NCBI RefSeq assembly: GCF_004010195.1
Contig: NC_057754.1
Location: 10,800,345 to 10,857,383 of the forward strand
DNA from: Chiloscyllium plagiosum
Lineage: Eukaryota
Direction: 5' to 3'
DNA length: 57,039 nt
Shown: in pieces, positions 4,911 to 57,039 of the stretch
Layout of the letters: the number at the start of each line of letters is the position of its first letter
How positions within the stretch are numbered: position 1 is the first letter of the stretch
Notes under the pieces: generated by a model
The model's input: only the letters and a program-made list of their open reading frames with translations
Databases searched by the model: none
What the model was told of the DNA's origin: nothing
Position numbers and translations under genes: made by a program

Positions 4911-5796
4911 TTAAAATCTTTAATCCTCAGGTCTTGATAAATAAAGTGACTCCATCAGATCATGACGTGATATTTGGTTTCAGTTTCATGACTTCAAATC
5001 CTTGATAAAATATCATTAGGTTCATACAGGGGAGAGGGTGTTCACCTACTCCACATGTAGGAAGGCATTTACTCAGTTATGGCTGTGAGTTTGCTCACTG
5101 AGCTGGCAGGTTTGTTTTCAGATGTTTCATCATCATGCTACGGAACATCATCAGTGAGCCTCCGGTGAAGTGCTTCACCAGAGGCTCACGATGCCCTCTT
5201 GTCCTAGCTTCACCTGTCAGTGGAAACATCAAATCTACTTCTATCTTATCCATTTCCTTCATAATTTTCTATGTTTCTACAAGAACCCTCCTCATTATTC
5301 TGAATTCCAATGTATATAATCCCAATCTACTCAGTCTCTGCGAGACTATACACTAATGTAATTTTGAAACAGTGTGTCAGGTTCTTAATTTCTTCATGAT
5401 ACAATAATAATAAATGATGTCCCAGTGATGACTGCTGTATTTTTAGGCCTTTTTCCTTTCTAACTCTGGATTCTTTCTATTCTCATATTCAGTTCCTCTA
5501 TGGACAAGTCCCAAGTCTTCGAGGGTGTCTCTTTTAATCTTGATGTGGAGGTGTCGGTGTTGGACTGGCATGGTTAAAGTTAAAAATCACTCTGAGCATT
5601 CTGAAAGCTAATACTTCCAAATAAACCTGTTGGACTATAACCTAGTGCTATGTGATTTCTAACTCTCTTAATCTTGTTATCCAGCAAAAGTATTGGTAAC
5701 ACACCCGGGATCAGTAAAAACAAAACCTGGTCTTTCCGTCAATTTCAGTGATGAGACATAATGTGTATCCCACAACAAATATCAAATAAACCATTA

Positions 5797-5997
5797 ACAA
5801 AAACAGAAGTTGCTGGAAAAGCTCAGCAGGTCTGGTAGCATCTGTGAAGAAAAATCAGAGTTAATGTTTCGGGTCAAGTGACACTTCCTTTGGCATGCAG
5901 CATTAACTCTGATTTCTCTTCATCAATGCTGCCAGACTTGCTGAGCTGTCCCATTAACTTTTGTTTTTGTTTCAGATTTATAGCATCTGCAGTTCTT
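5797..5997. mobile_element. Fold-back Penelope-terminus-derived element with degenerate hammerhead
   Basis: Inverted arms AACAAAAACAGAAGTTGCTGGAAAAGCTCAGCAGGTCTGG / GCCAGACTTGCTGAGCTG...TTTGTTTTTGTT. Centre carries GACCCGAAAC on the minus strand. Confidence 0.65.
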
Positions 5998-6460
5998 TCA
6001 GTTTTCATCAAATAAAGCAGCTTTGGTGTTTAATACATAAAATAGAATCTTCCTTGTCTCTGCAATGTGTGGGCAATGGCGAGTCAGTTGGGAAAATATA
6101 GTGAGATCCCGATTCTCAATGTCAGGGAATGAAGTCAGATTTTCCACCCAGGATTTTAACACAGAGATGAGAATCTTGCTGGTAAATAGTGAGAATCCCA
6201 TTTGCATTCACCTTATTATTATCTACTCTCAGCTGATTTATTTGCAATTTGATATTTTCCCATTTGGCATAGGAAAACTTGATGCTGACAACTTCTAACA
6301 TGAACATTTTAAAAGGTACTTAGCTGCCCTCAGTTTGTTTCTCCAGATCTGCATCTTGATAGTGTTCTTCAAAACGGTATTTCAGGACATGCACCATGAC
6401 CAGCATCGTTCATCTTCTGAGGTTGACATTGGAAGTGAGCCAGCCTCCCCACCACCTCAA

Positions 6461-8350
6461 GGAATAGAACATAGAACATTACAGCACAGTACAGGCCCTT
6501 CAGCCCTAGATGTTGCACCGACCTGTGAGACGAAACTGAAGCCCATCGAACTTACACAATTCCATTATCATCCGTATGTCTATCCAATGACAATTTAAAT
6601 GCCTTAAAGTTGGCGGGGCTACTACGGTTGCAGGCAGTAAAGAGACCTAAGGGGCAACTTTTTCCCTACAGTCATGCAGACTGATGTCTGAAGGGATGGC
6701 ATGCAGGTCTGTGTGCATATCCAGCAGTAAAGAGACCTAAGGGGCAACTCCATCTACCACTTCTCAGCCCATTGGCCCATCTGGTCCAGATCCTGTTGAA
6801 ATCAGAGGTAACCCTCCTCGCTATCCACTAACCCTCCAATTTTGATGTCATCTGCAACTTACTAACTGTACCTCTGATGCTCGCATTCAAATCATTTATG
6901 TAAATGACAAAAAGTAGAGGACCCAGCACCAATCCTTGTGGCACTCCACTGGTCACAGGCCTCCAGTCTGAAAAACAACCTCCACCACCACCCTCTGTCT
7001 TCTACCTTTGATCCAGTTCTCTGTCCAAATGGCTAGTTCTCCCTGTATGCCGTGAGATCAAACCTTGCTAATCAGTCTATGGGGAACCTTGTCAAACGCC
7101 TTACTGAAGTCCATATAGATCACACCTACCGCTCTGCCCTCATCAATCCTCTTTACTTCCTCAAAAACCTCAATCAAGTTTAATCCAATGCACAAAACCA
7201 TGTTGACTATCCCTGATCAGTCCTTGCCTTTCCAAATACATGTACATCCTGTCCCTCAGGATTCCCTCCAACAACTTGCCCACCACTGATGTCAGGTTCC
7301 CTCGTCTATAGTTTCCTGGCTTGTCCTTACCACCCTTCTTAAACAGTGGCACCACGTTAGCCAACCTCCAGTCTTCCGGCACCTCACCTGTGACTATCGA
7401 TGTTACAAATATCTCAGCAAGAGGCCCAGCAATCACTTCTCTAGCTTCCCACAAAGTTCTAGGGGACACCTGATCAAGTCCTGGGGATTTATCCACCTTT
7501 ACCCATTTCAAGACATCCAGCACTTCCTCCTCTATATTATGGACATTTTGCAAGATGTCACCATCTATTTCCCTACAGTCTATATCGTCCATATCATTTT
7601 CCACAGTAAATACTGATGCAAAATGCTCATTTAGTATCGCCCCCATTTCCTGCAGCTCCACACAAAGGCCGCCTTGCTGATCTTTGAGGGGCCCTATTCT
7701 CTCCCTCGTTACCCTTTTGTCCTTAATGTATTTGTAAGAACTCTTTGGATTCTCAATTTTATTTGCCAAAGCTATCTCATGTCCCCTTTTTGCCGTCCTG
7801 ATTTCCCTCTTAAGTATACTCCTACTTCCTTTATACTCTAAGGATTCACTCGATCTATCCTGTCTATCCCTTACATGTGCTTCCTTCTTTTTCTTAATCA
7901 AACCCTCAATTTCTTTAGTCACCCAGCATTCCCTATACCTACCAGCCTTCCCTTTCACCCTACCAGGAATATACTTTCTCTGGATTCTCATTATCTCATT
8001 TCTGAAGGCTTCCCATTTTCCAGCTGTCGCTTTACCTGTGAACATCTGCCCCTCATCAGCTTTCGAAAGTTCTTGCCTAATACCATCAAAATTGGCCTTT
8101 CTCCAATTTAGAACTTCAACTTTTAGATCTGGTCTATCCTTTTCCATCATTATTTTAAATCTAATAGAATTATGGTCACTTGCCCCAAAGTGCTCCGCCA
8201 CTGACACCCCAGTCACCTACCCTGCCTTATTTCCCAAGAGTAGCTCAAGTTTTGCACCTTCTCTACTCGGTACATCCACATACTGAATCAGAAAATTGTT
8301 TTGTGCACACTTAACAAATTCCTCTCCATCTAAACCCTTAATACCATGGC
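6461..8350 (-). mobile_element. CR1 LINE ORF2 fragment (end of AP endonuclease, start of RT, internal deletions, 3' tail)
   Basis: ORF 7170-8216 contains HFGASDHNSIRF (APE), KSPGLD, PEDWRLANVVPLFKKGGKDKPGNYR and SQHGF. Tail at ~6461-6510. Confidence 0.92.
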
Positions 8351-8520
8351 AGTGAGAAACTGGAGAGGTCTGGAGTCAGGCAAGGAGAACCTTAACAGGC
8401 ACTTTCACCCAACAAGCTAGTGGAAGGGAGGATAGCAGCAGAGGAAACTGATTGGATTGTCTCAATCTTAGTGACAAATAAGCTCTTTGATCTCTGCACA
8501 TTTGTTGTTAGATGAAAGAG

Positions 8521-12003: not shown

Positions 12004-12040
12004 TCCTTGTGGTGCCCGACTTGTCAAAACCTTGTCAAAA

Positions 12041-14586: not shown

Positions 14587-14929
14587 GTTCAAAACTGGTT
14601 ATGATAAACACAGTGACTGTTGGATCTGGATGTGGTTTAATTTGAAGTCTCTAACTGCAAATGAAAAATTTTCAAACAGAAAACAAGTGTATTAGGAGAA
14701 ACCAGAAGAACACAGCTTGTGAAACTGAGAGAAGTTCTGGTCAGTTGTGGAGATGACACGGAGGGAAAATGCTGGACTACCATTAAAATCAACTCATTCA
14801 CAAATCTTCTTCAGGGAAGCAAACCAGTCAGTGTTTGCACAAAACTACAGGAAGAGATAGACACGAAGGAGTTGCACCTTATAGACCTATAACTCAATCC
14901 TGTTCCTGTTTTCTCTCTTTAATCCCTCT

Positions 14930-17975: not shown

Positions 17976-18322
17976 GTCTTCTGTCATGACTTTTCTGTAC
18001 AATAAGCTTGTTACTCTCTTTTCAGAGAATTCAATTGAGCTTGGGATCTTCCTTCGTTTCAAAGATTTCTATTATATTCAAATGCTCCTACTTGTATTTC
18101 AGGCATATATTACACTTTTAAAAGCTCAAAGATAATACTCTGCACGTATCACTTACCAATTGGTTGTTTTGATTGGGCCCGTGTCACATTCTGTACTGCC
18201 CAGGCTCAGACTGAACACTGCATTCAGTCTTGCAACTTGACCTTCTGTATATCTCACCTCACTGTCTGTTTTCACCCAACTCCAAAGCACTCTGACTGAA
18301 CCATGCAACGCTCACAATACAG

Positions 18323-18537
18323 GTAAAAACAATGACTGCAGATGCTGGAAACCAGATTCTGGATTAGTGGTGCTGGAAGAGCACAGCAGTTCAGGCAGCA
18401 TCCGAGGAGCAGTAAAATCAACGTTTCGGGCAAAAGCCCTTCATCAGGATGAAAGGCTTTTGCCCAAAACGTCGATATTACTGCTCCTCAGATGCTGCCT
18501 GAACTGCTGTGCTCTTCCAGCACCACTAATCCAGAAA
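18323..18537. mobile_element. ~215-bp fold-back Penelope-terminus element with hammerhead core
   Basis: Long inverted arms centred near 18448. 16-bp TSD AACGCTCACAATACAG at 18307-18322 and 18538-18553. Confidence 0.85.
18416..18450 (-). ncRNA. Minimal type I hammerhead ribozyme motif
   Basis: Minus strand: AUC-CUGAUGA-A-GGGC-UUUU-GCCC-GAAA-CG-U-U-GAU. Core boxes, helix II, palindromic ACGU helix III and AUC/GAU helix I are present. Confidence 0.75.
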
Positions 18538-19199: not shown

Positions 19200-19620
19200 A
19201 AATACTGCTCTTCAAATCGCCCCGTCCCTCCGCACAAGAATCACGTGCACTGTTGCACCTTGCCCCCAATAAAGATGGCGGCGATAACAGGGGCCTATCA
19301 CCGCCTTCGGCCTACAGCCGTTATCCCGTTTTGCTGCAAACGCGCTTCGGCGAGTTTTTGATTCCGGTTTGGCGGCCTACATCAGGTGTTGATAAAACCT
19401 CTCAGTTCAGACTCACTCAGTTTTTCTTCCGTATTCGCTGATTCTCCCAGTTTTCCCGTCACCACCTTCCGCACTCACTCGAGCGCCAGTTACAGCAGCA
19501 CTGCGCCGGCAGCTCCACAGGTCACGTGTCGACTCGCCCGCCCCGCCCCTCATTCGCTCCCAATGGTTGGAGGACCAGCCGGTGCCGCTAGTCCCGCCCA
19601 CCCCCTTCTTATTGGTTATG
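19200..19620 (-). promoter_or_regulatory. CpG-rich promoter / non-coding first exon candidate for a ZNF unit
   Basis: CpG enrichment. YY1-type AAGATGGCGGC 19272-19282, E-box GTCACGTG 19521-19528, GC boxes 19536-19549, CCAAT ~19560 and ATTGG 19611. Minus-strand donors GTGAGT at 19416 and 19478. Confidence 0.65.
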
Positions 19621-21040
19621 GTTTGGAGGAGCAGGTGATGGACTTGGGTGGACAAAGTTAAAAATCACACAATACCAGGTTATAGTCCAACGGGTTTATT
19701 TGGAAGCACTGCTTTTTCATGAGGTGCTTGTGAAGCAGGACTATAAAACACAGAACTTTGCATCAAAAGATTACAGTGTCATGGAGCTGAAATGATATAT
19801 TGAACAAACCTAGACTAAGTATTTAATCTTTTAGAATGGGTTTGCTGGTTTCGTTAATATGTAAACCCCAGAACTCCTTTTAAGTCACATTCTCAAGATA
19901 ACAAGATTTTATAACGTAAGGTGCCATCTCAGCTCTGACAATGCATTGGAGGTGTGAGGTTAATGTCTGTCCCTATCCCAATCTTGTGTCAGACTGGTGG
20001 AATTTACAAAATATTACATGGATTGACTGCCTGCAAGTTATGTATTTTTTGAGCAAAATAGATTGTATCTGCAAATACAAATTCACCCCATAAACTTGTG
20101 TTGTGTGTGCATGTGAGTGTGAAATTTAGCATCACACCTAACCTGCACATCTTTGGACTGTGGGAGGCAACCCACACAGACACAGGGAGAATGTGCAAAC
20201 TCGATACTGACAATCGCTCAAGGTTGGAATTGAATCTGGGTCCCTGATGCTGTGAGGCAGCAGTACTAAGCACAGTCACTGAGCCACATCAACTAGCCAC
20301 AAAAAGACATAATCCACTATCACTAGTATCCTTACATACAAATGAGGAAGGACACTACTTTAACTGGATTAGTGGTGCTGGAAGAGCGTGGCAGTTCAGG
20401 CAGCATCCAAGGAGCTTCAAAATCGATGATTTCGAAGCTTTTTGGATGTTGCCTGAACTGCTGTGCTCTTCCAGCACCACTATTCCAGAATCTGGTTTCC
20501 AGCATCTGTAGTCATTGTTTTTACTACTTTAAGTGGGATAACACATCCATCCGCGGACAAGCCAAATAGAGCATGCACAATTCCTAGAAGCATAGCATCC
20601 AACTGGACCTCTATGAACAAACACATCAATTCGGACCCCGTCTACCACCCTCTGAAATAAAAGAACTGGAAATGACATCACCAACCCAAGGAAACCTAAA
20701 TACACAAATAGAAAGCAGGGCATAACACCAGAATTTCACTGGAGGCTCACTGATGATGTTATCTAGTATGGTGAGGAAATGTCTGCAAATGAACCTTCCA
20801 GCTCAGTGAGCAAACTTACATCCAAGACTTAGTTTAGGTTTGTTAGGTGAATTGGCTATGCTGTAAGTAATCTAATCTAATCTAATCATATCATTTGAGC
20901 TGCATGACACTAATTTTTTGCTATAAATTCTGTGTCTTACAGTCCTGCTTCACAACCACCTGATGAAGAAGCATCACTTCGAAAGGTAATGCTTCCAAAT
21001 AAACCTGTTGGACTATAACCTGGTGTTGTCTGATTTTTAA
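19619..21040. mobile_element. Inverted-arm Penelope-terminus element with nested SINE (~20120-20290), hairpin insert (~20364-20522) and Poseidon-like Penelope 3' end (~20530-20825)
   Basis: Arms AAAAATCACACAATACCAGGTTATAGTCCAAC / GTTGGACTATAACCTGGTGTTG. Imperfect TSD CTTCTTATTGGTTA / CTTCCTATTGGTCA. Inner TSD ACTACTTTAA. SMNKHINSDPVYHPL resembles a GIY-YIG C-terminus. Confidence 0.75.
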
Positions 21041-22149
21041 CTTCCTATTGGTCACTGACCTGCTGTCAATCAGCCAGGCCCCATTGTGAGGTGAGTGGTG
21101 GGATCCTCCCTCTCTCTGCCCTGGGATAAGCTTCATCATTCACAGTGAACGGTATTGTATCACAGAGGACAGGGGCCCCATTGGGGCTGTACTCTCACTT
21201 GAGAATCGCTGCAAATCTATCCCAACTCTTGACCATCTCCCACCAATCTTTCCTTAAAAAGTTAAATTACAAATCAATAGCTGAATCTGCATCCAGCTGC
21301 TGTTCAGACTGTTCCAGATTCTCAGAACTTCACATTTATACCCTGCATTATTTGCCAATTGCCCAAAAGCTCTGTTCAGTGGTTATCAAACATTGTGACA
21401 ATATTAATAATGTCTCTCTTTCAAATGAAATATACTGGAAACAAATCTATACCTTGACTAGATCACTGCCTAATGTTCTCAGATCCAAGGAGAACTATCT
21501 GATCGTCTGCTGCCTCCCCGAACAAACCAAAAACTATTTTAATTTTAATGTATTCAGGGATACACTCCTGTGTGTTTATTTGTCAACTAAACTGAAATGA
21601 ATTTCAGATGAAAATAAATAGAGATTCATCAGCTACACACCTATCAACTTCTTCCATATTCCAGAAGGCACCTTACTTTTTTGGTGAACTCCCCAAGTAT
21701 TTTTCTGAAATTCTTATTATCTCAACATGACAGATTTTCATCTGCTGAAAAATATTCAGATGTCTTTTCTGTTACAATCCCTTGAGGGTTAGCTTTATCT
21801 TTATCAGCTATATTTTGTAATTGGACACTGACTGTAATGATGGAAATATCTGAGGAAGGGTCAGCAGACCCAAAACGTTAACTCTGATTTCTCTTCACAG
21901 ATGCTATCAGACCTGTTGAACTTTTCCAGCAATTTGTTTTTGTTTCTGATTTACATTTACAATTCATTCAGTTTTATTAGAAATATCAAATTGACTTGAC
22001 TTTTATGGTAATTTATCTAGTCTCAGTTTCTCGTTGACTAACATGACAAACAGAACTGCTCTTAGTATTCCACCTGTGCTTGAAATCTCCAGCATAATCT
22101 CCCGAGTGATATTCTATATTCAACAAAGTGCCTTACTGATTTCCTTAGT

Positions 22150-22655: not shown

Positions 22656-23559
22656 TTATCTACATATGCAGCCACCTTCAAGGATCTGTGGACATCACTC
22701 TGAAATCTCAAAGTTTCTCCACACTTCTCAGTATCTGACCAATTATTGTGCATTTCCTTGCCCTGGAGCACCCCCACACTCCAATGGTCATTATTTCCAG
22801 AATGAATTTGATTGACTATGGTTTTGCCTGTTTCTGTAGTCCATTAACATGTAGTCTGCAGCTTTCTTCCTCACTGTCCACAACTCGTCCAACCTCTGTG
22901 ATATCTACAAACTTCTTCATTATGGCCCCTGCAGTGAAGTCTAAATCCTTGACATATACACCATAAAACTGCAGAACCGCACTGAAAATAGGCAGCCAGA
23001 CAAGGTTCAGTTCATGATGTACTTAACAGCAGACTCCAATTGCTGCTTTTGCAGGTGAAGTTGCTGGTGTCTTAGTAAGGTGTGTGACTGAGCAAATCTT
23101 TTCCCACACATGGAGCAGATGAGCTGTCCGTTCCAAGAATGAATGTGGTGATGTTTCAGTAGATTCTGTTTAATTTAAACCTCTTCTTCCAGTCAGAACA
23201 TTGAAAAGGTCTCTCATCAGTGTGAACAAGTTGAGGTGTCGTGAGATGTGCTGCCTGACCTGCTGTGCTGTTCCAGCAATAAAGTTTCAACTTTGATCTC
23301 CAGCATCTGCAGACCTCACTTTCTCCTGACTGAGAGAATCTCTTGGCACACAGGAAGGAGGGGAACTGTCTGTCCCCTGATGGATCAGAAGGTCAGATAA
23401 ATCAACAAATTCAAGTTGAGCAGTCAGCACAGGAGAATGGCCTTTCACAAGTGTGAACTCAATGGTTTTTCAGCAGGTGGGATAAATGAATGAAGTCTTT
23501 CCCACACACACGGCCGGGGGACAGCCTCTCCCCATTGTGAGTATACTGGTGTTTAAGAA

Positions 23560-25847
23560 TGATTTGGAGATGCCAGTGTCGGACTGGGGTGTATGAAGTT
23601 AAAAATCGCACAGCACCAAGTTATAGTCCAATATGTTTACTTGGAAGTACGAGCTTTTCGAGTGCCGCTCTTCATCAAGTGGTTGTGGAGTACACAATTG
23701 TAAGACAAAGAACTTATAGCAAATTTTTGCAGTGAGATGTAACTGAAATTATACATTGAAAATTACCTAGATTGTTAAGTCTCATATGTTAGAATGACTG
23801 CTTCTTTCATATGTAAATCACAAAACTTATTTTTAAAAAGTTACATTCTCGAGTTAACTGTAACAATTGGTGTCAGCCCAGATAATATGTTAAGATATTG
23901 AAAGTGTTAGCCCCCTGTGTTCCCTGTCTGTTTAGGCTGATTCTAATGTAAAAAGTGAGTTAACAGAGTCTTACATGGATTCATGCAGTTTTTGACCAAA
24001 GTACAATGTAACTCAACAAGTATAAATTCACCCCACAAATTTATATGTGTATGTGTGCATGTGGTTGTGTGTGTGTGCATGTGGTTTTGTGTGTGTGTGT
24101 GTGTGTGTCTGTAGGAGTGTGTGTCTGTAGGAGTGTGTGTGTGTGTCTGTAGGAGTGCGTGTGTGTGTGTGTGTGTGTCTGTAGGAGTGTGTGTNNNNNN
24201 NNNNNNNNNNNNNNNNNNNNNNNNNNNNNNNNNNNNNNNNNNNNNNNNNNNNNNNNNNNNNNNNNNNNNNNNNNNNNNNNNNNNNNNNNNNNNNNNNNNN
24301 NNNNNNNNNNNNNNNNNNNNNNNNNNNNNNNNNNNNGGGGTGGGGAGTGTCTGTTAGAGAATTTATATGTGTGAGAGTGTAAAGTGTTTAAGTCCGTGGG
24401 ATGGTGCATGTGTGAGTGTGGGAGTGTGTGTGTCTGTGGGAGTGTGGGTGTCTGTAGGAGTGTGTGTCAGTGTATAGGAGTGCCTGTGTTTGTGTGTGTG
24501 TGTGTCTGTGAATAGTGCAATGGTGGTCATCTGTGGTGTGACATGAACCCAAGGTCCCGGTTGAGGCCTTCCCTATTGGTACCAAACTTAGCTATCAGCC
24601 TCTGCTCGGCCACTTTTCGCTGCTACCTGTCCCGAAATCCGCCTTGGAGGATGGTCACCTGAAGGTCCAAGGTCGAATGTTCTGGACCGCTGAAGAGTTC
24701 TTCAACTGGGACGGAATACTCCTGTCTGTTGATTGTTGTGAGGTGCCCATTCATCCGTTGCCATAGCCTTTGCTCAGTTTCCCCAATGTGTCATGCCTCA
24801 GGGCATCCTTGCCTGCAGCATATGAGATGGACAACGTTGGCTGAATCGCATGAGTACCTGCCACGTGCATGGTGGGAGGTGTCCCCATGCGTAATGGTGG
24901 TATCTATGTCCACACTCTGACACGTCTTGCAGCGCCTACCGTAACAGGGTTGTATGGAGTTCGGCACCCATAGGGAGGGCTTCAACCAGGAACTTGGGTT
25001 CATGTCACACTACAGATGACCACCATTGCACCACACACACACACACACTCCTATACACAGCCATACTCACACACAATCCTACAGACACAAACACTCCCAC
25101 ACTCTCACAGACTTAGACACTTTACACTCACACACACATATTTACCTCCCACACTCTCACAGACTTAGACACTTTACACTCACACACATATACACTCTCT
25201 CTCACACTCACAACCCCCACCCCAGACAGACAGACAGAGACAGACACACACATAGATTTGTGGGGTGAATTTGTACTTGCCGAGTTACATTGTACTTTGG
25301 TCAAAAACTGCATGAATCCATGTTAACTCAGTTTTTACATTAGAATCAGCCTAAACAGACAGATGTTGTAAGTGTTAGCCCTCTGTGTTCGCTGTCTGTT
25401 TAGGCTGATTCTAATGTAAAAAGTGAGTTAACATGGATTCATGCAGTTTTTGACCAAAGTACAATGTAACTCAACAATGTAACTCAGTTTTTACATTAGA
25501 ATCAGCCTAAACAGACAGCGAACACAGAGGGCTAACACTTACAACATCTTAACATATTATCTGGGCTGACACCAATTGTTACAGTTAATCTGAGAATGTA
25601 ACTTTAAAAAAAAGTTTTGTGATTTACATGTGAAAGAAGTGAAACTATCATGGTCATTCTCACAGATGAGAGACTTAACAAACAATCAAGGTATTTTTCA
25701 ATGTATAATTTCAGTTACATCATACTGTAAACCTTTGCTATAAATTCTGTGAATTACAATTGTGTACTCCACAACTACTTGATGAAGGAGCAGTGCTCCG
25801 ACAGTTAGTTGTTTCAATTAAGTCTGTTGCACTAACCTGGTGTTGTG
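23560..25847 (-). mobile_element. 5'-truncated Penelope-like element (GIY-YIG C-terminus) with inverted terminal repeat
   Basis: Minus strand ~24530-24960: PCYGRRCKTC...YSCDSANVVHLICCRQGCPEA*HIGETEQRL...RMNGH...AEQRLIAKFGT...GLNRDLG. Plus-strand copy of the 3' end starts at ~24960. 13-bp TSD TGGTGTTTAAGAA at 23547-23559 and 25848-25860. Confidence 0.88.
24045..24510. repeat. (GT)n-rich microsatellite inside the Penelope tail, spanning N-gap 24195-24336
   Basis: GTGT runs with CTGTAGGA units. Mirror (CA)n tract at ~25030-25255. Confidence 0.9.
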
Positions 25848-27003
25848 TGGTGTTTAAGAAGATGCCTTTTGCTTTTAAATTTCTTCACACAGAACATCCA
25901 AAAGATCTCTCATCAGTGTGAACAATTTGATGGGTCAGAAGGTAGGATAAACTAGTGAATTCTTTCCCACACACAGAGCAGGTGAATGGTTTCTCCCCAG
26001 TCTGAGCGGGTTGATACTTTAGTCAATTATTTTTACTTTTAAAGCTCTTCTTACAGTCAGAACATTTAAAAAGTCTCTCATCAATCTGAGCAATTTGGTG
26101 TGTCAGGAAGTGAGATCACTCAGTGAGTCCTTTCCCACACACTTATGCAGGTGTATCAATATATCTTCTCTGCTTTTAACATTCATCTCACATTTAGAAC
26201 ATTTAAATGATCTTTCATCAGAACGAACCTGCTCATAAGTCCGGAGCGTTGATTGAGCATTAATTCCCTGTCCACACATAAAGCAGGTGAATGGCTTCTC
26301 CCCATTGTGAATGTGCTGATGTGTGTACAGGTTGGACGACTGAGTGAATCCCTTCCCACACATAGAGCAGCTGAATGGCCTCTCCCCAGTGTGACTCCGT
26401 GATGAGTTTCCAACCTGATGGGTAGCTGAATCCCTTCCCACAGTCCCACAGTTTCTCCATGGTGTCAGTATCCTTGATTTTTTTTCCCAGGTTCAGTGAT
26501 TGATTGAAATCGATCTCCACAAACAGAACTTATCAATGATCTCTCCCCATCATGGATGGCGTAATTAATTTTCAGGCTGAGTAGCTGGTGAATACTCTTT
26601 CAACAGTACTTTCACTGGAACACTCTCCTTGCATGTGTATGTCTTGGTGATTTTGCAGTCACACTGATGGTTAAAATCTTTTCTTATAGACAGCATTTCT
26701 TCAGAGGCTAATGATTTCAGATGCTGATGAACTGAATGACTGTCAGTTTTTCACGTGATGCACTGTTTCACCTTCTGAATGTAAATACAAACTTCTGAAT
26801 GCCCTGCAAAAAGAACTTATTCTAAGTATTTCATTCTATGAAATAAACAAAAAGGCTATTCAGTCCAATTACTCTATTGTTTTTATGTTCTCCCCCCCAT
26901 TATCTTCATCTCAACTTTGTATTATTACTTATTTTTCTAATCCCTTGTCCGTCCTAGACATACCTAGTTTCCTTTTGAACATATCACTACTTTGTTTCCT
27001 GCA

Positions 27004-27808
27004 TGATTTGGAGATGCCGGTGTTGGACTGGGGTGTACAAAGTTAAAAATCACACAACTGGAAATGTGTTGCTGGAAAAGCGCAGCAGGTCAGGCAACAT
27101 CCAGGGAACAGGAGAATCGACGTTTCGGGCATAAGCCCTTCTTCAGGAACGTCGATTCTCCTGTTCCCTGGATGCTGCCTGTGCCCGAAACGTCGATTCT
27201 CCTGTTCCCTGGATGCTGCCTGACCTGCTGCGCTTTTCCAGCAACACATTTCCAGCTCTGATCTCCAGCATCTGCAGACCTTACTTTCTCCTTAAAAATC
27301 ACACAACACCAGGTTATAGTCCAACAGGTTTAATTGGAAGCACACTAGCTTTCGGAGCTTGCAGAGTTACATTGTACTTTGCTCAAAAACTGCATGCATT
27401 CATGTAGAACTCTGCGCTCAAAAACGGCGTTATCTCACTTTTTAGATTATAATCAATCTAAACATCATGGCATAGACAGAGAACACAGGGGGCCAACAGC
27501 TTCAATATATTCTCTAGCTATCACCATTGTTAACAGCTAACCCAAGAACACAACGTTTTAATAAAAAAAGGTTTTGTGATTTACACATGAAAGAAGTGAA
27601 ACTATCACTGTGTTCTAACAGATGAAAGGCTTAACAATCAATTTTTCAATGTATAATTTCAGTTACATCACACTGTAAATTTTTGCTATAAATTCTGTGT
27701 GTTACGATCGAGCCCTCCACTATCACCTGATGAAGGAGCGTCGCTCTGGAAGCTAGCATGCTTCCAATTAAATCTGTTGGACGATAACCTGGTGTTGTGT
27801 GATTTTTA
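27004..27808. mobile_element. Coding-free inverted-arm Penelope-terminus element with nested second-family hairpin (27059-27291)
   Basis: Outer TSD ACTTTGTTTCCTGCA at 26989-27003 and 27809-27823. Inner TSD TTAAAAATCACACAAC at 27043-27058 and 27292-27307. Confidence 0.85.
27117..27149 (-). ncRNA. Minimal type I hammerhead ribozyme motif
   Basis: Minus strand: UC-CUGAAGA-A-GGGC-UUAU-GCCC-GAAA-CG-U-C-GA, with GUC cleavage triplet. Confidence 0.75.
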
Positions 27809-28129
27809 ACTTTGTTTCCTGCACCATTTCCTGTGAATTTCAGGTGAATTCTCTAAATGAAGAAATCTCATGTGAAAACATTTTCTACATATTAACCCCA
27901 TCCAAAACATGGATAATTTTCAATTGCTGTGTCAATTCACTGCTGAGCCTTCCTTAAAGGCCCCAGGCTGTTCAATTTTTCCCAAAGGCTGCATTATTTT
28001 AAGCTTATAAACCTCTATCTGTGTCAGTGCAGGATGGAGATTGGGAAGAGCCAAACATTTCTCTGAGTTGCAGTTTGCTTATCCTCCCATTCTCCCCACC
28101 TGGAAAAGGAGTTTATAAAACCCATCTTG

Positions 28130-28400: not shown

Positions 28401-29264
28401 AAAGTATAGGCACTACCATTGATTCTTAAAAAATTGTATATTTCATGACTTGATTTGCTTTTACGGTTAGAGACTGGGCCAGAGATTCAAATAACAGAGC
28501 AAAGAACCAATGTGAACAGAAATCCATCTAAATTGATCCTCCATTATCCATCTGAAAGAAGGATGATATGAATTGATGGTACATCTATACAGCCCTGAAA
28601 CAGCCGAAATGGTGACAGACCTCAACTGCTGGTGGCACCTGTGGGTTCACGGTGTCTCAGTGAATCACTGCCCACGCATGACTTTAAAACTTCTACCTCA
28701 TGTGAATGCATTTCTCCCATCGTAAATCCTGTAATCTTTCAAACTCTGTGTTTCAGGTTTCCAGCATCCACAATGTTTTGATTTAATTTGATTCTCCTCA
28801 GAATGGTTCACTGGTCTCAGGTTGGGGGCAATAAGATCTCGGAGTCTGAAGGTGACACTCTTCTTCATGTTGTGGGTCATACAAATGGATGGATGAAGCT
28901 GATCTCTGTGGCTGAGTGTGGTGCCTTCTCCTATTCTCAGTCTTCCTGACTTGACCATTTAGTTAAGCAAAGGTCAGTATTGATCAATTTGTGGACCTCA
29001 ATCCAGCTCTTGATGGTGATTGAAACAAACCAGTCTTTTCAAATTAACTGCTTTTGATTGGAAGTAAGTGTAATAGTAACTACAGGCTCAGTCAATTCAT
29101 TTGGGACTCAAAATACACTTGACGTAAAGTCACTTACATCATCGTGGCGAGAGAAAATTACTCTATGCATGATGGTGTGATGTCATGGGCAAAGGCAGCA
29201 CCATTAGCAAAATGATGGTGCTCAACCCACACAATCAAACAATTTTATTTTTTAAAATCACATG

Positions 29265-29985
29265 ACAACTGTAGGAAGTGCAACACCTGCCCCTACACCT
29301 CTGTCCAAGGCCCCAAATAATCATTCCTAATCTGGCAGAGATTCACCTGCACCTCTTCCAACCTGGTTTACTGCATCAGTCTCTCCTGATGTGGTCTCCT
29401 CGACATCAGGGAGTCAAAACGCAGACTCGGTGACCAGTTCGCAGAGTATTTGCGCTCTGTAAGCTCCAATCAACTCCACCCTCCATTGCCAGCCATTTCA
29501 ACCCCTCCTTCCACTGTGTTGGCAACATGTCCATCCCAGGCCTCCTCCACTGTTAAAATAACTGGAGGAACAACACCTCATATTCCACCTCAAGAGCTTA
29601 CAGCCCAATGAACATCAAGTTCAGCAGCTTCAAATTCTCCTCACGCCCAACCTTCCCAGCCTTCCTCTTCCCCCCACCTCCTTAACCGGACCTAACCTAT
29701 CTATCTTCCTTCTCACTTATCTGCTCCAACCTTCCTAATGACTGATCGCGATAAATCCCCACCAGCATCCACCTATCATCATCCCACCTACCGTTCCCCC
29801 AGCCCCACCCCTCTCCATTTATTTCTCAGCTCCTGTCCACCCCTAGTCTGGTAAACGGTCCTGACCCAAAACACTGACTTTCCTGCTCCTGTGATGCTGC
29901 CTGACCTGCTGTGACTTTCTAGCTTTACTTTTTTTTTTAAACACAACCCTAACCTCCAGCATCTGCAATCCTTACTACCTTCATC
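29265..29985 (+). mobile_element. Penelope-like element GIY-YIG 3' fragment and tail
   Basis: CRKCNTCPYTS...QRFTCTSSNLVYCI...SKRRLGDQFAEYLRSV...LEEQHLIFHLKSLQP. Tail ends CTCCAGCATCTGCA. Confidence 0.8.
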
Positions 29986-30805
29986 CTCTATTTCTGTAGC
30001 TACTTATTTTAGAATCATTGATATAAGCCTTCAGGGCCAAGGGCCTTATCTGACTTCAGTCCCATTAGTTTGTTGAATACTACTTAATGCCACATCTGTA
30101 ACGCAGCCACCATCTTCTTCAGTACGCCATTTCATGGTCACTGTTCTTGAGGGGATGTTTTACTCTGATGTAGTTTATTAAGCCTGTCACATTTCACACC
30201 ACCAGATCCAAATTGGCAACTTCCTTCATCACGTCCCTTCTGCAACACTTGCCTCTTTGGACAGTTATGGAAATATTTTTCTCTGAAATTTATTTCTCTC
30301 TGTAAAAAAGGCTTTTATGGTGAAGGAAGAAACGGAATCTTGTTACAGATTTAATTACAGAATGAATCATGACAGGTATGTACTTCCTGACACCACTCTA
30401 TGTCAGTACCACTTTATATGTTCTCCCTCAGTGTTGGGGATGTACACTTACCATTTGATAAAATTAACAGCTCCAGTCAGGGCCAGTAGTGTGTTTATCC
30501 TCTGTGTGGCTGCCAAGATCACTCAGCAAGTGGGATGATTGGTTGAATTCATTCCCACACAGAACAAATGAATGGCTTCTGCCTGGTGTGAATTTACAGG
30601 TGTGCCAGCAGGTTGTAAGTCTGAGAGAATCATTTTTCCACATCGTGTAAATTCACCAGTGCTTCTGCAGAGTGGATGAATCAGTGATTTTCTTCTCACA
30701 CACAGAACTGTCTCACTCCAGTGTGAACCCACTGGAGTGAGAACTTTGGCAAGACTGAATCAATCTATTCCCACACTGAGCACTTGTATGGCCTTTCCCA
30801 AATGT

Positions 30806-31453
30806 ACAAAGTTAAAAATCACACAACACCAGGTTATAGTCCAACAGATTTAATTGGAAGCACACTGGCTTTCGGAGTGACGCTCCTTCATCAGGTGATA
30901 GTGGAGGGCTCAATCCTAACACACAGAATTTATAGCAAAAATTTACAGTGCAATGTAACTGAAATTATACATTGAAAAATTGATTGTCTGTTAAGCCTTT
31001 CATCTGTTAGAACACAGTGATAGTTTCACTTCTTTCATGTGTAAATCACAAAACCTTTTTTTAAAATTTGCATTCTCGGGTAGGCTTTTAACAATGGTGA
31101 TAGCCAGACAATATGTTGAAGGTGTTAACAGCTTGTTAACAGCTAACCAGAGAATGCAACTTTTTAAAAAAGGTTTTGTGATTTACACATGAAAGAAGTG
31201 AAACTATCATTGTATTCTAACAGATGAAAGGCTTAATAGACAATCAATTTTTCAATGTATAATTTCAGTTACATCACACTGTAAATTTTTGCTATAAATT
31301 CTGTGTTACGATCGAGCCCTCCACTATCACCTGATGAAGGAGCGTCGCTCCGAAAGCTAGTGTGCTTCCAATTAAACCTGTTGGACTATAACCTGGTGTT
31401 GTGTGATTTTTAAACTTTGTACGCCCCAGTCCAACACCGGCATCTCCAAATCA
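30806..31453. mobile_element. ~650-bp coding-free palindromic Penelope-terminus element, one hammerhead motif per arm
   Basis: ~300-bp inverted arms about a centre near 31130. 12-bp TSD TTTCCCAAATGT at 30794-30805 and 31454-31465. Confidence 0.9.
31328..31362 (+). ncRNA. Minimal type I hammerhead ribozyme motif (intact core)
   Basis: CAC-CUGAUGA-A-GGAGC-GUC-GCUCC-GAAA-GC-U-A-GUG: helix I CAC/GUG, 5-bp helix II, palindromic AGCU helix III, CUA triplet. Confidence 0.8.
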
Positions 31454-32794
31454 TTTCCCAAATGTGAACTTGCTAGTCTCTCAGCAGGTGGGATGAATGA
31501 GTGAACCTCTTCCCACACTCAGAGCAGTTGAACCGCCTCTTCCCAGTGTGAACTCTCAGGTGTAAATGCCAAGCAGCTGAATGTGTAAGTGTCTTCCCAC
31601 AATTAAGCTGGTGATTGGCCACTCCCCAGTGTGAACCCACTGGTGTGTCTGATGGTGTGAATCCTTCAAAGCAGACTGCATAGATAAAGCTCTCTCCTAA
31701 ATTCAAAGACCAACAATATTCAGGTTCCAATGAATTAAGTGACTGTCAGATCCTTTCACAACATTTGGTTTCAGACTTCTGCAACTTTTCTATTCTAGTT
31801 TCCTGTTAAAGGTGATTACATCTTAGTATAAGATGGACATTCAAAGCAGAATACAGAATATTTCTTCTGTATTCACTTCCCAAAAACTGTAAATCTGTAA
31901 CCCATACACTCTCCTTCCATGGACTCTGAATTATGTATGGGCTCTGAATTCTCCCAAAGGTGTCAATTTGATGATCAATGGAACCTTGCTCATTGCTGAG
32001 CACATGGATCATGAAATATAAAAACAGGAACAGGACATTCATCCCATTGCACCAGCTCCACCTCTCAAAATTAGCATAATTGTGCTGATCTATTTTTAAA
32101 CTTGATTTTCCTGATAAACCTATAACCATCAACACCCTTGTCAATCTAAAAGCTGTCTGCTGCAGGCTAATGATCCAGTTTCCATAGTTGCCTAAGGGAC
32201 ATCACTCCACAGACTAACAACTCTCAGAGCAGAAATTCTGTATCTTTGAAATGAGAAAGCCCTCATTTGTGATCTTTGTCACTGAGTTGTAGAATCCCTC
32301 ACAAGAGTAAACAATTTCTCAGCACCTATCCAATCAAAGGGCTTCAATTCTATTTGTTTCAATAAGATCACGTCTCATTCATTTAAAGACTCAGTCAAGT
32401 GAACCTTTTCAAACTGCTTCCAAAGTCGGTATGTCTCTCCTTAAGGACACAGACCCAAGGAATAGACTCTGGATCAACCCTCACCAATGCTCTACACAGT
32501 GATAAGAAGATCTAACATTTAAACTCTTTCAGCAAAGGTCAACATTCCAAAGTTCCATCCCAATTACGCAATATCTGCTTGCTAACTTGCTTTGACTCAA
32601 GTAGCAGGACAGCAGATTCCTCCGTACAGCAGCCTTGTGCAGAATCTTTCCATTTAAATAATATTCAACTATTCAATTATTTCGGTCAAAGTGGGATTTA
32701 TTACATATTATGATATAGGTGCCATTGCCTTCACCTCCACGCGTACTCGGCCCAATTATATTCCATTTTAGAGTGCACCTTCCTGCTTTCCTAC

Positions 32795-35310: not shown

Positions 35311-35400
35311 TCTAAAAATCGTGCTGAAGCACAAAAAGACTTAATATACGATCCTACAGAAACAGTCCTGCGCTCGTGTCACCACTGTATAATCAATTAC

Positions 35401-40540: not shown

Positions 40541-40544
40541 CGCC

Positions 40545-43800: not shown

Positions 43801-43919
43801 TTATTTCCTCCCAAGTTACACAGTTTGATTTCAGTTAAAAATCACACACCACGTTATAGTCCAAAGCTTTATTTGGAAGAAACAGCTTTCGAAGCACTGT
43901 TTCATCATCAGGTGAACGA

Positions 43920-48044: not shown

Positions 48045-48650
48045 AGAGTCATAGAGATGTACAGCACAGGAACGGACCCTTCAGTCCAACTCGTCCATGC
48101 CGACCAGATATCCCATCCTAATCTAGTCCCATTTGCCAACACTTGGCCCATATCCCTCTGAACCCTTCCGTTTCATATACCATCTAATTGTACCAGCCTC
48201 CACCACTTCCTCTGGCAGCTCATTCCATACACACACCACCCTCTGCATGAAAAAAATTGCCCCTTAGGTCTCTTTTATATATTTCCCCTCGTATCCTAAA
48301 CTGATGTCCTCTGGTTCTGGACTCCTCCACTCCAGGGAAAATACATTGTCTATTCTTTCGATCACTCCTGTCTATACCTTCTTTTTCCTTCTTTTTCTTA
48401 ACCAAAACCTTAATTTCTCTAGTGATTCAGCATTCCCTACATCCTTCCTTTCTTTTCACCCTAACAGGAATATACTGTGTCTGGACTCTCATTATCCCAT
48501 TTTCCAACCATCCCCTTCCCTGCAAATATCTGCCCTCAACCAGCTTTTGAAATTCTTGCCTAATACTGTCAAAATTAGCCATCCTCCAATTTAGAACTTC
48601 AACTTTCAGGTCCTGTCTATCCTTTTCCATCACTATTTTAAAACATATAT
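48045..48650 (-). mobile_element. Internally deleted CR1 LINE fragment
   Basis: Tail and TRGHQFRIRG...RGNFF, plus KDRQDLKVEVLNWRMANFD (homologous to the 7170-8216 ORF). Confidence 0.85.
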
Positions 48651-48654
48651 AAAT

Positions 48655-51600: not shown

Positions 51601-54600
51601 AGACTGCATCCCAGCTCCTCTAAGTTTTCATTTACAAAAGTTACCCTTCCTTGGTGAAAACCGAAGCAAAAAACCCATTTAGGGCTTCCCTTATCTACTC
51701 AGACTCCACGCACAAGTTCCCTTCGCTATCCCTGATCGGCCCTATCTTCTCCCTGATCATTCTCTCATTCCTCACGTATGAGTAAAATAATAAAAATGTT
51801 TTTCATCTTAGCCTAAGTCTTCTGTACACCGAGGTGACCTTCTATTGGTAGTTCATGTGCTACCCTTAAGACTTCCTGTCTGTATGCTACCAGCAACACA
51901 ATCTGGTGCACTTCACCTATTTCTGCTGCACTAACCTGCTGTGGTCTCCATTTTTGTCTTAGGATTCTATCTTTAAGATACTAACCCTCAGGAATATTCG
52001 CTGACTCCTTTTCTGAGTATGCATCAACATATATATCTTTTATTATCACATTTTTCTGTTTTAAGTCCATTAGCCTTTCAGGGCTAAACACCTCTGTCTG
52101 ATCCTCTGTCTGTTCAGGTTTTTCCTGCACCATTACATCAAACAGGATGCCTGCTAACTGAACTTCAACTCCTTCAGCATTCTCTTTAGTTTTTGCTTCG
52201 TGCTGTTACTTACGAGAGTAGGATCTTGTTACTACACAGTCGAGGAAAATTCCAGGATATTTTTCTTTTAACTCCTCAGTTCCTTGGTCTTCCTTTGGCT
52301 TCTCCACAACAAAGAGTGTCACTCCTAGCTTGGATCCTGCTAAGCCATTCCCAAGAACAAACTGTATTCCTTTAACTGACACTGACTTCTCCAGTCTTGA
52401 ATTGGCACCCCAACCTGATCTTACGTAGGGGAACCATAAATTTCTGTCTATCTATCCCACAAATTACTCCTCTCTCGGGTAACAGATCAGAAGGAGTGCA
52501 AATATGTGCACCTCTTCCTACTGGAGAGTGATTAGATCCTGTATCTCTCAAAATGATAACTTCTCCCCCTGTCCATTCTGAGTAAAGTTGACCCACACAG
52601 GCGAATTCTTGAAAGCATTCAGGCACTACTCCATACCCAGCTTTAGACTGTACACTATCCTGTAGCTCCTCGACTTTTCTTGGGGTTTCCTTTACTACTT
52701 TCATGAATGCCACTCGCTCAGCTTCTTTTACCACAGTGCCTTTCTTTAACGACCAGCACTGTGACTTTACGTATCCCACTTTCTGTCAGTGAAAACACCT
52801 TTTCCCAATGCCTTTCTTAAACCAGCAGCACTGTAATGTTCTATGTCCCACTCTGTTACAGTGCAAACACCTGAGGCCTTTCACCTCCTTACCACCCTCT
52901 TGGGTTTATTTCTTTTTAATGTGTGGTAAACAATTACAAGTGTTCTCTACTCTTTGTTTTGTAGTGTATAATGCCCCCCTTCTCCCAATTTTTATCCCTC
53001 ACAGAATAAAGTTCTGGCCAGAAGCCAAACTTTGCCTTATGCACAATGCATATTCATCTGCTATTTCTGAACTTTCTGTTCCTCCACATGAATTCTTATC
53101 ATCCCTGGAAGTGAGTTTTTAAACACCTCCAGCAGAATAATCTCTCTTCGAGCCTCATAGGTCTTATCTACTTTTAAGGCCTGCATCTATCTATCAAAAT
53201 TACTATGTTTAATTGCTTTGAACTCAACGTAATTCTGACTTAGTTCCTTTTTTATGCTTGTGAACCGCTGTCCATACGCTTCTGCTACCAAGTCAGAAGC
53301 ACTCAAGACAGCCCGTTTGACTTCTTCATAACCTCTTGACTCCTCATCTGACAGCGCTGCAAATGCCTCACTAGCTCTGGCCACCAGTTTAGTTTGAACT
53401 AGCATTACCCATAAGTCCTCTGACTACTCCCTCTGCCTAGCCAACTTTTCAAATGAAATAAAGAAGGCTTTGAGATATTTCACATCAAAATGTGGCAGCG
53501 TTTTAACATATTCATATATATCACTACCTTCTCTCTTCATCTCCACCCTGTTAACTTGACTATCCTGACTAAGTTACAACTTCTGAAGTTTAACTTCTCT
53601 CTCCTTTTCTCTTTCTTTTCTCTTTCATTCTCTCTCCCTTTCTTTTCTCTCTTTGCTCAGCGAAGGACCTTCTCTCTTTCTCTTTCTCCTCTCTCTTTCT
53701 TTCCTCTCTGTTTTTCTTTCTTTTTCCCCTCTCTATCTTCTAACTCGATTTTTCCGAATTTTAATTTAAGAGTTTCAAACTCTACTGTATTTGACTATTT
53801 CTCTAACACACCTAAGTGCTTAGCTAACTCCCTTACAATTTTGGCTTTACTCTTGTCCTTGATTAAACCCAATTCTAGTCCCTTTGCTAATTCTAAAAGT
53901 ATGGTCTTTTTATGCCCTTCTAACCTTTCTTGGCAAAGTTGGCAATCATCTTCAAGTTCTAGATCCTCTTTAGTAATTTTAAGAGCCATTTGTCTCAGTT
54001 TAATTTAACCAACCACAATTAACTAAAATTAAACAAATTGTCTCAGTTACGTTTTATTTAAAGATCTAGTCACTACGTGGCAAGTGTTTAAATCTGCTGG
54101 ATCTTTTGTACCTCAAATCTGTTCAAATCTGTCCAAATCTCAGACTGGATTTGTCTAAATCTGTACAAATCCCGGATAAGCGCCCAAACTGTTACGACAT
54201 GGTGGTGAACCCTTCTGATAATTAAACACCCAGAAAAGCTCACCTCACCTCATCATCTGTAAAAATATGAGTGACATTGAACTACCAAATTCCACTATTT
54301 AAAGAAAAAAATCAATTTATTCTTTAACTCTAAAAGTGGACATAAACAATAAGTATTTACAACTCTAAGCCTCCTTTATCTTAAATGCATGTTATCTGCC
54401 TTCCACTCAATAACGTTGTACCGTTCTCATAAAACCCCATATTAAAATTACATCACCTTAAGTTCAAAACCACACAGTGGCTGTCGTCTACAGTGTCCTC
54501 CTTCCGGCTCAAAATCTCCCTGGGTCGTCTTCAGTCTTCTGCTGCAAAGATGTTTCATATGAAAGGATACCTTTGATGGAGAGTGTTTTTATGGCAGTTA

Positions 54601-54953: not shown

Positions 54954-55580
54954 GGCACTACCCGTGAGATCCTTCTTGTATGCCCGGATGATCTGTGCCA
55001 CCCCATGCTGCCCTTAAAGTGGCTGCAGGGGAGTAAAGACTGTCACATGTCTTGCTGGAATGTGTATTTGCAAAGGAGGTCTGGAGAAAGATGCACTGGT
55101 TTTTGTCAAGGTTCATCCCAAGCAGCTCTGTGACACAGGACTCTGTGCTCTATTGTCTATTCCATTGGATGCGCACCAAGACAAACATCAACTGCATCTA
55201 GAGGACCATCAACCCAGTGAAAAACGCTCTTTGGCCTGCCCAAAATTTGCTGAACTTCAACAGCAAGGAGTTGACTTTGACCAAGTGTTGCAGACTGGCA
55301 CATTGCAAGGTCCAGGACTGCATGCTGAGGGACGTATATAAGCCTGGGGCAGTTGACTCCAAGGTGCAGTGGAGAAAGACCACCATCTAAGGTCTTTCTG
55401 CCAAAGTTAAATGGGGATCCGTTCAGCTATGGAACCCTCCCCTGCCTCAAAATATATTTACATATAGTCTTGCGTTAGTAAGAAATACCTTTGATTTATT
55501 TTGTGAACAGAGTCAAACTCCAATGTTTGTTTACTTCTTATGCTACTGTACAGAACTGAACTGCTAAATAAAATATATTT
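54954..55580 (+). mobile_element. Tx1/L1-clade LINE 3' end (zf-RVT region)
   Basis: LPVRSFLYAR...HVLLECVFAKEVW...VKNALW. AATAAA at ~55567. Confidence 0.7.
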
Positions 55581-55710
55581 TTGAAATCAAGAAATGCTCC
55601 TTTTCAAATTTTTTATATTCAACCTGTTCAGAGATGTAATGGTACACCGCTGGAGCAGTTGGGACTTGAATCCAAATCTTCTGGATCAGAGGAGAACACT
55701 ACAACACAAC

Positions 55711-56024
55711 GGGCGGCACGGTGGCACAGTGGTTAGCACTGCTGCCTCGCAGCGCCAGAGACCCGGGTTCAATTCCCGACTCAGGCGACTGACTGTGTGG
55801 AGTTTGCACGTTCTCCCCGTGTCTGCGTGGGTTTCCTCCGGGTGCTCCGGTTTCCTCCCACAGTCCAAAGATGTGCAGGGTCAGGTGAATTGGCCATACT
55901 AAATTGCCCGTAGTGTTAGATAAGGGGTAAATGTAGGGGTATGGGTGGGTTTCGCTTCGGCGGGTCGGTGTGGACTTGTTGGGCCGAAGGGCCTGTTTCC
56001 ACACTGTAATCTAATCTAATCTAA
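55711..56024 (+). mobile_element. HE1-type SINE (CpG-rich, young)
   Basis: GGCACGGTGGCACAGTGGTTAGC A-box, GGTTCAATTCC B-box, (TCTAA)n tail. Confidence 0.93.
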
Positions 56025-56804
56025 AAGATACCTCTTGCTCCTTTGTCACACGTGCGTTTCGATCTCTATCCCTCCATTACTACCTTTTACTTTTGAGCTG
56101 AACACAATTAAAATATTTTCCACTCACCCTTCCTTGCCTTCTGCCAACAATTTTTTCCAGCTGCTTCCACTTCTGAAGTAGCATCATCTTGGACATGAAT
56201 TGTTAATTCTTTCACTCTCCACAAGTACTGCCAAAACTGCTATATTTCTTCATAGTTCCTTTTTATTTCATATTTCCTGCATCTGCCTTTTTAAAAATCT
56301 ACCCCATGGCTTGGTGGGAATGATAGAATGGTGGATGTGCTAAGTTTAAAGATTGTGTTCCAAGTACAATTCTACTGTTGGGGATAGCCAGCAGTACCTC
56401 CTGCATTCCCAATTTTGAGTTACTCGATCATATATGTTTCAAATTCATTCCCTTGAGCGCAGTGATAGTGCCACCTAATATGAGTATTCTCAATGTGAAA
56501 ACAGGGCTTTATCTCCACAAGGACTATTTGGTGGTTACTCTCACCAGTGCTGTCATGTAAAAAAGAAAATCTGCAGCAAGCAGATTCATTAGGAAGAGAT
56601 TTGGTATGTATTTCCCTCTCGTTTGCTCCCTCACAAACTGCTGCAGGCCCACTTTATCAGCTATCTGATTTAGGACTCGACCAGCTAGGTCAGTAGAGTC
56701 ACAGAAATGTACAGCAGAAAAACAGGCCCTTCCATCCAACTTGTCTGCTCAATCAAAAAACCGAAACTAAATTGTGACATTTGCCTGTACTTGGCCCATA
56801 TCCG

Positions 56805-57039
56805 AGGAGAAAGTGAGGACTGCAGATGCTGGAGGTCAGAGCTGAAAATGTGTTGCTGGAAAAGCGCAGCAGGTCAGGCAGCATCCAAGGAGCAGGAGAA
56901 TTGACGTTTCGGGCATGAGCCCTTCTTCAGGAATGAGGAAAGTGTGCCCAGCAGGCTAAGATAAAAGGTAGGGAGGAGGGACTTGGGAGAGGGGCGTTGG
57001 AAATGCGATAGGTGGAAGGAGGTTAAGGTGAGGGTGATA
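56805..57039 (-). mobile_element. Penelope-like element 3' terminus with hammerhead motif (56901-56933), running off the window
   Basis: Same family as 27059-27291. Minus strand UUC-CUGAAGA-A-GGGC-UCAU-GCCC-GAAA-CG-UC. Confidence 0.75.

Follow-up and report, generated by a model that had tools for sequence, protein, structure and literature searches.

The stretch of Chiloscyllium plagiosum contig NC_057754.1 analyzed here (57,039 nucleotides; hereafter the window) carries a set of small RNA motifs that are, with high confidence, minimal type I hammerheads located in the 3' ends, or pseudo-LTRs (LTR, long terminal repeat), of Penelope-like retroelements (PLEs). The motifs are typed according to their helix II sequences, with GGAGC/GCUCC in type A, GGGC/GCCC in type B, GGGUC/GACCC in type C, and a six-pair GUU-led stem in type D, and sites are named by the coordinate of C3. 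All 14 sites listed in a preliminary description of the window are present within about 25 nt of the positions given there, and there are three further hammerhead remains that it overlooked, at 18446 and 29848 on the forward strand and at about 19723 on the reverse strand; the first catalytic box is missing from five other arms or fragments. The features are listed in Table 1.

The motif exceeds chance, yet is complete in just two of the 14 sites. We scanned both strands with the published minimal hammerhead descriptor (Fig S7 of PMC4209133), using 20 dinucleotide shuffles as the null. The full descriptor has two matches in the window (31331 and 18447) and none in each of the shuffles, and without helix I it finds five sites with core and helix II versus a shuffle mean of 0.1, and it is on these counts that the excess over chance is judged. 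Loosened settings give 12 versus 1.15 and 9 versus 0.95, with chance matches included. The core segments CUGANGA and GAAANNUH are intact in seven of 16 hand-anchored copies, and an AGCU or ACGU palindrome (15.1–16.1), which would allow a dimer, is present in nine of the 16 tabulated copies. The palindromic helix III previously ascribed to the best copies is found in four of the best five, the exception being 20960 (AGGU). An Rfam scan of the window with E values up to 10 returned 22 matches, none of them a hammerhead and all under the gathering score; those of microRNA models to fold-back hairpins were rejected on that score.

The preliminary description distinguished four families with covarying helix II. 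Four types of end are indeed present, but they represent three lineages, as the B and C tails are common over 34 nt at 82–91% (blastn) and the copy at 29848 is intermediate, with a C-type helix II and a B-type tail; types A and D have no blastn similarity to other types. In the best copies, helix II pairs at 5/5 positions in A, 4/4 in B, 5/5 in C, and 5/6 and 3/6 in D, with C and D represented by only two to three decayed copies each. Helix I, on which the preliminary description was silent, varies in step with type (CAC/GUG in A, UC/GA in B, UCA/UGA in D); it has at least 3 bp in A (31331, 30894) and D (5154), and in B there are 2 bp with a mismatch, or 3 bp in the junction copy 18447, whose third pair is supplied by the inversion junction and may not be native. 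The covariation of helix II holds between types, although this compares three or four tips and lacks statistical weight alone. Among the window copies of type A there is just one compensatory pair, a change from G-C to A-U in two of seven copies (20960 and 43911), which is probably one inherited event. When these seven are aligned with three outside loci (nine distinct rows), 84.5% of the cells pair, versus 15–49% with slid partners, and two helix II pairs are changed on both sides, the G-C to A-U change being one of these. The family consensuses that had been proposed as a check have intact core and helix II in their majority letters for both A (six copies) and B (four copies), so neither lacks the nucleotides that define the motif.

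The association with PLEs is provided by endonuclease sequences adjoining the motifs. A GIY-YIG endonuclease remnant precedes the type A motif 23678 by about 850 nt on the same strand, with 79% identity over 144 aa to shark protein P0004 and 63% to P0006, which bears a reverse transcriptase (RT) domain. Its nearest named relatives belong to bamboo sharks and other shark species, and in tblastn it is matched by 84 of the PLE proteins used as queries. An RT domain is also present in relatives P0020, P0021, and P0029, and two of five relatives scanned have a GIY-YIG Pfam match. The second remnant is upstream of the B/C-type end at 29848, and the two differ in their linkers, which are CX4CxxC in the type A remnant and CxxC only in the B/C remnant. 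A CX2-5CxxC linker before GIY-YIG marks Neptune/Nematis elements in the classification given in PMC8557442, and, judged from the linker motif alone, type A would fall among PLEs of the Neptune/Nematis type. We also note that five shark proteins annotated with other functions (P0013 and P0015–P0018; a phosphatase regulator, GPCR-like proteins, and an XRCC5 isoform) harbor part of the type A endonuclease, which may be a gene-model artefact or exonisation.

Related arrangements are found in marine metagenome contigs. A metagenome scan with the motif pattern identified at least 118 loci, and among the loci listed none matches a window family beyond the motif; frames from the listed loci match window positions 24961–24533 (44% over 144 aa, E 1e-35) and 29276–29491. 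In marine contigs L052 (1330–1365) and L023 (966–1001) the motif is that of type A at 34 of 36 nt with an adjoining endonuclease only 44% identical, and contig L047 (882–945) has the type A motif, tail words, and the last endonuclease residues in common; in L052 and L047 the type A-like hammerhead is downstream of related endonuclease sequence. The near-identical marine motif lends modest support to selection on the motif in active lineages, modest because the search pattern fixed 16 of the bases in the motif that agrees at 34 of 36. Among 100 motifs from outside the window, 37 have a paired helix I, versus 9.2 in shuffles. A scan of viral sequences gave one, unrelated, locus.

The anatomy of the insertions fits PLEs. 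Target-site duplications (TSDs) of 10–16 bp flank nine of the 15 insertions tested, three of them with one mismatch in the core repeat, and among random-pair controls exact repeats of at least 11 bp occur in 0/300 and of 10 bp in 2/300. Eight insertions are head-to-head inverted pairs, usually with an extension of roughly 40 nt on one arm. The B insertions at 27058–27292 and 20364–20524 have their own TSDs and thus postdate the A and D copies hosting them. The Neptune/Nematis-type PLEs described in the relevant sections of PMC8557442 and PMC3846280 share with these insertions the C-terminal GIY-YIG domain with its CX2-5CxxC linker (type A here), 5'-truncated head-to-head copies, TSDs, junction palindromes, and a one-arm tail (30–40 bp in those elements), but their TSDs are 8–10 bp in the rotifer examples. 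Within the type A untranslated region there is also a 97% internal hairpin with 86-nt arms (25277–25477) whose best Rfam match is a microRNA model below threshold; this is likely a local inverted duplication.

Table 1. Hammerhead motifs, PLE insertions, and endonuclease remnants in the window, grouped by type.
Type	Coordinates	Strand	C3	Feature	Support
A	31331..31359	+	31331	Complete minimal hammerhead with intact core, helix II 5/5, 3-bp helix I, and AGCU palindrome	Passes published descriptor
A	30866..30894	-	30894	Hammerhead, decayed; inverted partner of 31331	
A	30804..31455			Head-to-head insertion with tail	12-bp TSD at 30794/31454
A	27727..27755	+	27727	Hammerhead, single core change	
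A	27003..27815			Insertion with short inverted copy; host of nested B insertion	15-bp TSD at 26989/27809
A	25779..25807	+	25779	Hammerhead, decayed, two core changes	
A	23651..23678	-	23678	Hammerhead, decayed; endonuclease remnant upstream	
A	24530..24961	-		GIY-YIG endonuclease remnant; two internal stops, CX4CxxC linker	122 bits to PLE endonuclease profile
A	24957..25016	+		Last endonuclease codons at start of inverted copy	tblastn 80% over 20 aa
A	23558..25857			Longest PLE insertion: two head-to-head 5'-truncated copies; breaks zinc-finger array	13-bp TSD at 23547/25848
A	20960..20988	+	20960	Hammerhead with GAAGC-variant helix II; core intact, helices I and III broken	Descriptor without helix I
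A	43883..43911	-	43911	Hammerhead, decayed; 5' end roughly 4 nt ahead of C3, against another repeat, boundary uncertain	
A	19618..20094	-	about 19723	End with helix II deleted	
A	5541..5665			Tiny head-to-head insertion without first catalytic box	14-bp TSD, one mismatch
B	56903..56930	-	56930	Hammerhead with undamaged core and helix II but broken helix I; copy continues past window edge	Descriptor without helix I
B	27119..27146	-	27146	Hammerhead with undamaged core and helix II; helix I has 2 bp, and the 5' end lies about 3 nt ahead of C3	Descriptor without helix I
B	27058..27292			Fold-back insertion nested in A tail	16-bp TSD at 27043/27292
B	18420..18447	-	18447	Hammerhead at inversion junction	Passes descriptor
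B	18446..18473	+	18446	Inverted, decayed twin of 18447	
B	18323..18536			Fold-back insertion	16-bp TSD at 18307/18538
B	20364..20524			Fold-back insertion without first catalytic box, nested in D element (probable D endonuclease)	10-bp exact TSD
B	23249..23330	+		Tail fragment, hammerhead-free	
B/C	29848..29875	+	29848	Heavily decayed hammerhead, C-type helix II and B-type tail	
B/C	29219..29562	+		Second GIY-YIG remnant, upstream of 29848	tblastn matches from 20 queries (lowest E 1.7e-16) and a PLE endonuclease profile score of 34 bits
C	21850..21879	+	21850	Hammerhead, G12 changed	TSD places 5' end at C3
C	5863..5892	-	5892	Hammerhead, decayed; in fold-back insertion 5787–6005	13-bp TSD (one mismatch)
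D	20750..20783	+	20750	Hammerhead: core intact, helix II 5/6; ATG starts at A9	
D	5121..5154	-	5154	Hammerhead: core intact, helix II 3/6	
D	20534..20657	+		Probable frameshifted endonuclease C-terminus of D element; further piece 20287–20361	

Several observations weigh against assigning all of these motifs to PLE hammerheads. Six of the 15 insertions have no TSD, tblastn recovered no PLE reverse transcriptase remnant from the window, and a Pfam scan of the three endonuclease pieces in the window gave no match. The native type B helix I is 2 bp plus a mismatch, and a native type C helix I is not seen in the window copies, the 5' strand being lost; the tie of type C to an endonuclease is through the common tail and the intermediate 29848 only. 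No D protein homologue was found by word search, in the ESM Atlas (best 0.79), or by targeted tblastn. The earlier proposal of minimal type I hammerheads in PLE ends is borne out for A and B/C by endonuclease links, TSDs, and descriptor matches.

The type D copies also depart from the helix II pairing reported in the preliminary description, in that neither closes G10.1–C11.1 (C11.1 is missing), leaving the five and three pairs listed in Table 1. An intact, paired D helix II and a D palindrome are inferred for the original from opposite CpG transitions, two in the case of the palindrome. The frames upstream of 20750 are ones that we take to resemble an endonuclease C-terminus, which homology searches did not confirm; the D frame has a weak match to the PLE (non-Poseidon) endonuclease profile (4.6 bits), with five of 500 shuffles scoring as high. 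The D end has features in common with Poseidon PAc of Anolis carolinensis as described in PMC11167929, including an ATG at the start of helix II, a distance from ATG to predicted cut of 28 nt (26 in PAc), and an end about 80 nt past C3; unlike in PAc, the ATG frame is closed by a stop at codon 18 in each D copy. Membership of Poseidon is a lead only, since no protein homologue was retrieved.

One lead is the concentration of 5' ends at the hammerhead. Copies were gathered by tail similarity, with the censored copy 56930 and one duplicated arm excluded, and 12 of the 25 mapped 5' ends lie between -5 and +33 relative to C3, with two in the 39 nt upstream and one at +34 to +68. Counted per insertion, eight of 16 are in the hammerhead bin versus one and two in the flanking bins (p 0.009), and seven of 15 (p 0.02) if the 43911 end is dropped as uncertain; the 5' boundaries were hand-set from alignments, the bins were picked after the data were seen, and very short copies are hard to detect. 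The 12 ends form one cluster at -4 to +3, the 5' edge of the core, and a second at +16 to +26, where the 3' foot of helix II lies. None of the 25 is at the predicted cut (+28 to +34), the nearest being 4 nt away, and we reject cleavage as their source. It is possible, though in our judgment doubtful, that the hammerhead fold, and not cleavage, determines the points at which the PLE reverse transcriptase halts or doubles back. Seven of the twelve motif-spanning ends are from B-type insertions or their twins. A length distribution skewed to short copies by itself increases the number of 5' ends near the 3' end. A literature search returned nothing on 5' ends clustering at PLE hammerheads; self-priming at junction palindromes is discussed in PMC3846280.

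Judging from their decay and predicted folding, the window copies probably do not work as ribozymes. The core decays as fast as the tail, with no visible selection; relative to the intact 31331, the five other A copies are changed at 4/55 core positions and 14/234 tail positions, and of the 33 differences from the majority letters in A and B, CpG transitions account for 10. Folding predictions give helix II of 31331 and 27146 a probability of 0.8–1.0, which falls to 0.0 when the upstream inverted arm is included; for 18447 the probability is 0.0 at all lengths, and 56930 keeps helix II (0.95) with a broken helix I. There is no head-to-tail array at the hammerhead sites (Tandem Repeats Finder) and no close tandem pair, the nearest same-strand motifs of the same type being 1,947 nt apart and both damaged. 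We set aside an energy comparison for 31331 (-17.7 kcal/mol for the double-hammerhead fold versus a dimer minimum of -34.1), because the model ignores core interactions. For comparison, the minimal hammerheads assayed in PMC4209133 show no cleavage as monomers and low cleavage as dimers, cleavage in the Anolis PLE is reported to require the element's protein and to be unnecessary for insertion in vitro (PMC11167929), and one of nine Xenopus dimers is active according to a recent preprint (bioRxiv 10.64898/2026.07.22.740005).

We consider it highly probable that the motifs are, as a whole, passive relics of endonuclease-bearing PLEs with a minimal hammerhead in the pseudo-LTR. Such elements in the shark lineage would carry a minimal type I hammerhead in the pseudo-LTR, and reverse transcription would begin just 3' of it, by analogy with the Anolis element. 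Reverse transcription would usually stop early, so that most insertions would be short 3' stumps, each bringing the hammerhead along; the stumps often have a head-to-head inverted copy and a TSD. In an active parent the ribozyme would probably cleave weakly, either in dimers formed at the 4-nt palindrome or with the aid of the element's own protein, and its cleavage would process tandem transcripts as in other PLEs, whereas the window copies would simply decay, cleavage by them being unlikely.

Many of the insertions are 100–250 bp with clean TSDs and no coding part, and could instead be non-autonomous elements (non-LTR retrozymes or SINE-like pseudo-LTR derivatives; SINE, short interspersed element) whose transcripts cleave and circularise and serve as templates for PLE enzymes. 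The non-LTR retrozymes of Li et al. 2026 (bioRxiv 10.64898/2026.07.22.740005) are likewise non-coding, hammerhead-bearing derivatives of pseudo-LTRs, and the preprint reports them from one chondrichthyan, but by the definition given there they are head-to-tail arrays containing two or more complete hammerheads. No such array is present in the window, where same-strand motifs are at least 1.9 kb apart; moreover, the 5' ends vary between copies, unlike those of copies of one short master, and endonuclease sequence is still present in two insertions. We therefore regard this origin as unlikely.

Even less probable, and to our mind very unlikely, is that some copies now serve zinc-finger gene transcripts, having been recruited as active ribozymes or regulatory hairpins. 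Three insertions are within zinc-finger arrays and both 31331 and 18447 pass the descriptor, but the arrays that were hit are themselves broken, folding predictions trap the best copies in long hairpins, and the equal decay of core and tail and the lack of monomer cleavage in PMC4209133 also argue against it. That the motifs are chance matches in repeats, of no ribozyme ancestry, has almost no credence; Rfam contains no hammerhead match to the window, relaxed descriptors yield one to four chance matches per shuffle, and energy models favor neither helix I nor the double-hammerhead fold, but the exact descriptor result, the near-identical motif in unrelated marine contigs, the helix I pairing of the outside motifs, and the pairing of all four helix II and three helix I sequences around one core would be difficult to account for by coincidence.

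As relics of PLEs, the motifs closely resemble the minimal hammerheads of metazoan PLEs in the sequences presented by Cervera and De la Pena 2014 (PMC4209133), with CUGANGA, one extra base, a G10.1–C11.1 helix II, GAAA, a palindromic 15.2–16.2, a short helix I, and several families per genome, mostly as single truncated copies with some opposite-strand pairs. A shrimp row of that paper has the AGCU-A and CAC/GUG layout of type A, and the helix II (4–6 bp) and helix I (2–3 bp) of the window copies are at the short end of its range. The supplement has no shark or Callorhinchus row as far as searched, and a literature search found no paper on shark PLE hammerhead families, although repeat libraries and supplements may hold them. 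The window ends are new members of a described kind, and the finding is real but ordinary.

PLE ends total 6,917 bp, or 12% of the window. Ten of the 15 PLE stretches lie in the 13 kb between 18.3 and 31.5 kb, amid zinc-finger arrays, and this clustering makes the window unfit for scaling up to the very large genomic load suggested in the preliminary description; descriptor matches in other vertebrates number about 4,000 and 9,000 in the counts of PMC4209133. The remainder of the window includes an open C2H2 zinc-finger exon (13351–14598, reverse strand; 414 aa with 10 double-finger stretches by Pfam) and broken zinc-finger arrays at 3.8–4.9, 23.0–23.5, 25.9–26.4, 30.5–31.5, and 46.7–48.0 kb, which were hit by three PLE insertions. 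A broken provirus-like stretch (about 33900–41400, reverse strand) spans an assembly gap and has Pfam matches to Gag p30, zinc knuckle, RNase H, and integrase, together with an envelope-like frame with no Pfam match. There are also LTR-retrotransposon-like pieces (48641–49225 and 52372–52785, reverse strand) with an RT fragment (Pfam RVT_1) and a nearby frame that we take to be protease-like, and three reverse-transcriptase remnants of long interspersed elements (7170–8216, 44301–46178, and 50292–51787, all on the reverse strand), one with an RVT_1 match, which are presumably CR1-like.

Hammerheads at PLE ends, in many families and in masses of single truncated copies, were described in 2014, and insertions with an inverted copy and tail earlier still; the shark families add examples to these. 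If the fold does influence the positions of 5' ends, PLE hammerheads would gain a measurable in vivo effect independent of catalysis, either as a site of stalling and template switching or, alternatively, through a transcript start or splice site at helix I, and if this were true genome-wide the ribozyme would be a source of very short fold-back insertions. A genome rich in recent insertions would allow testing of whether the fold truly shapes the points of truncation and inversion.

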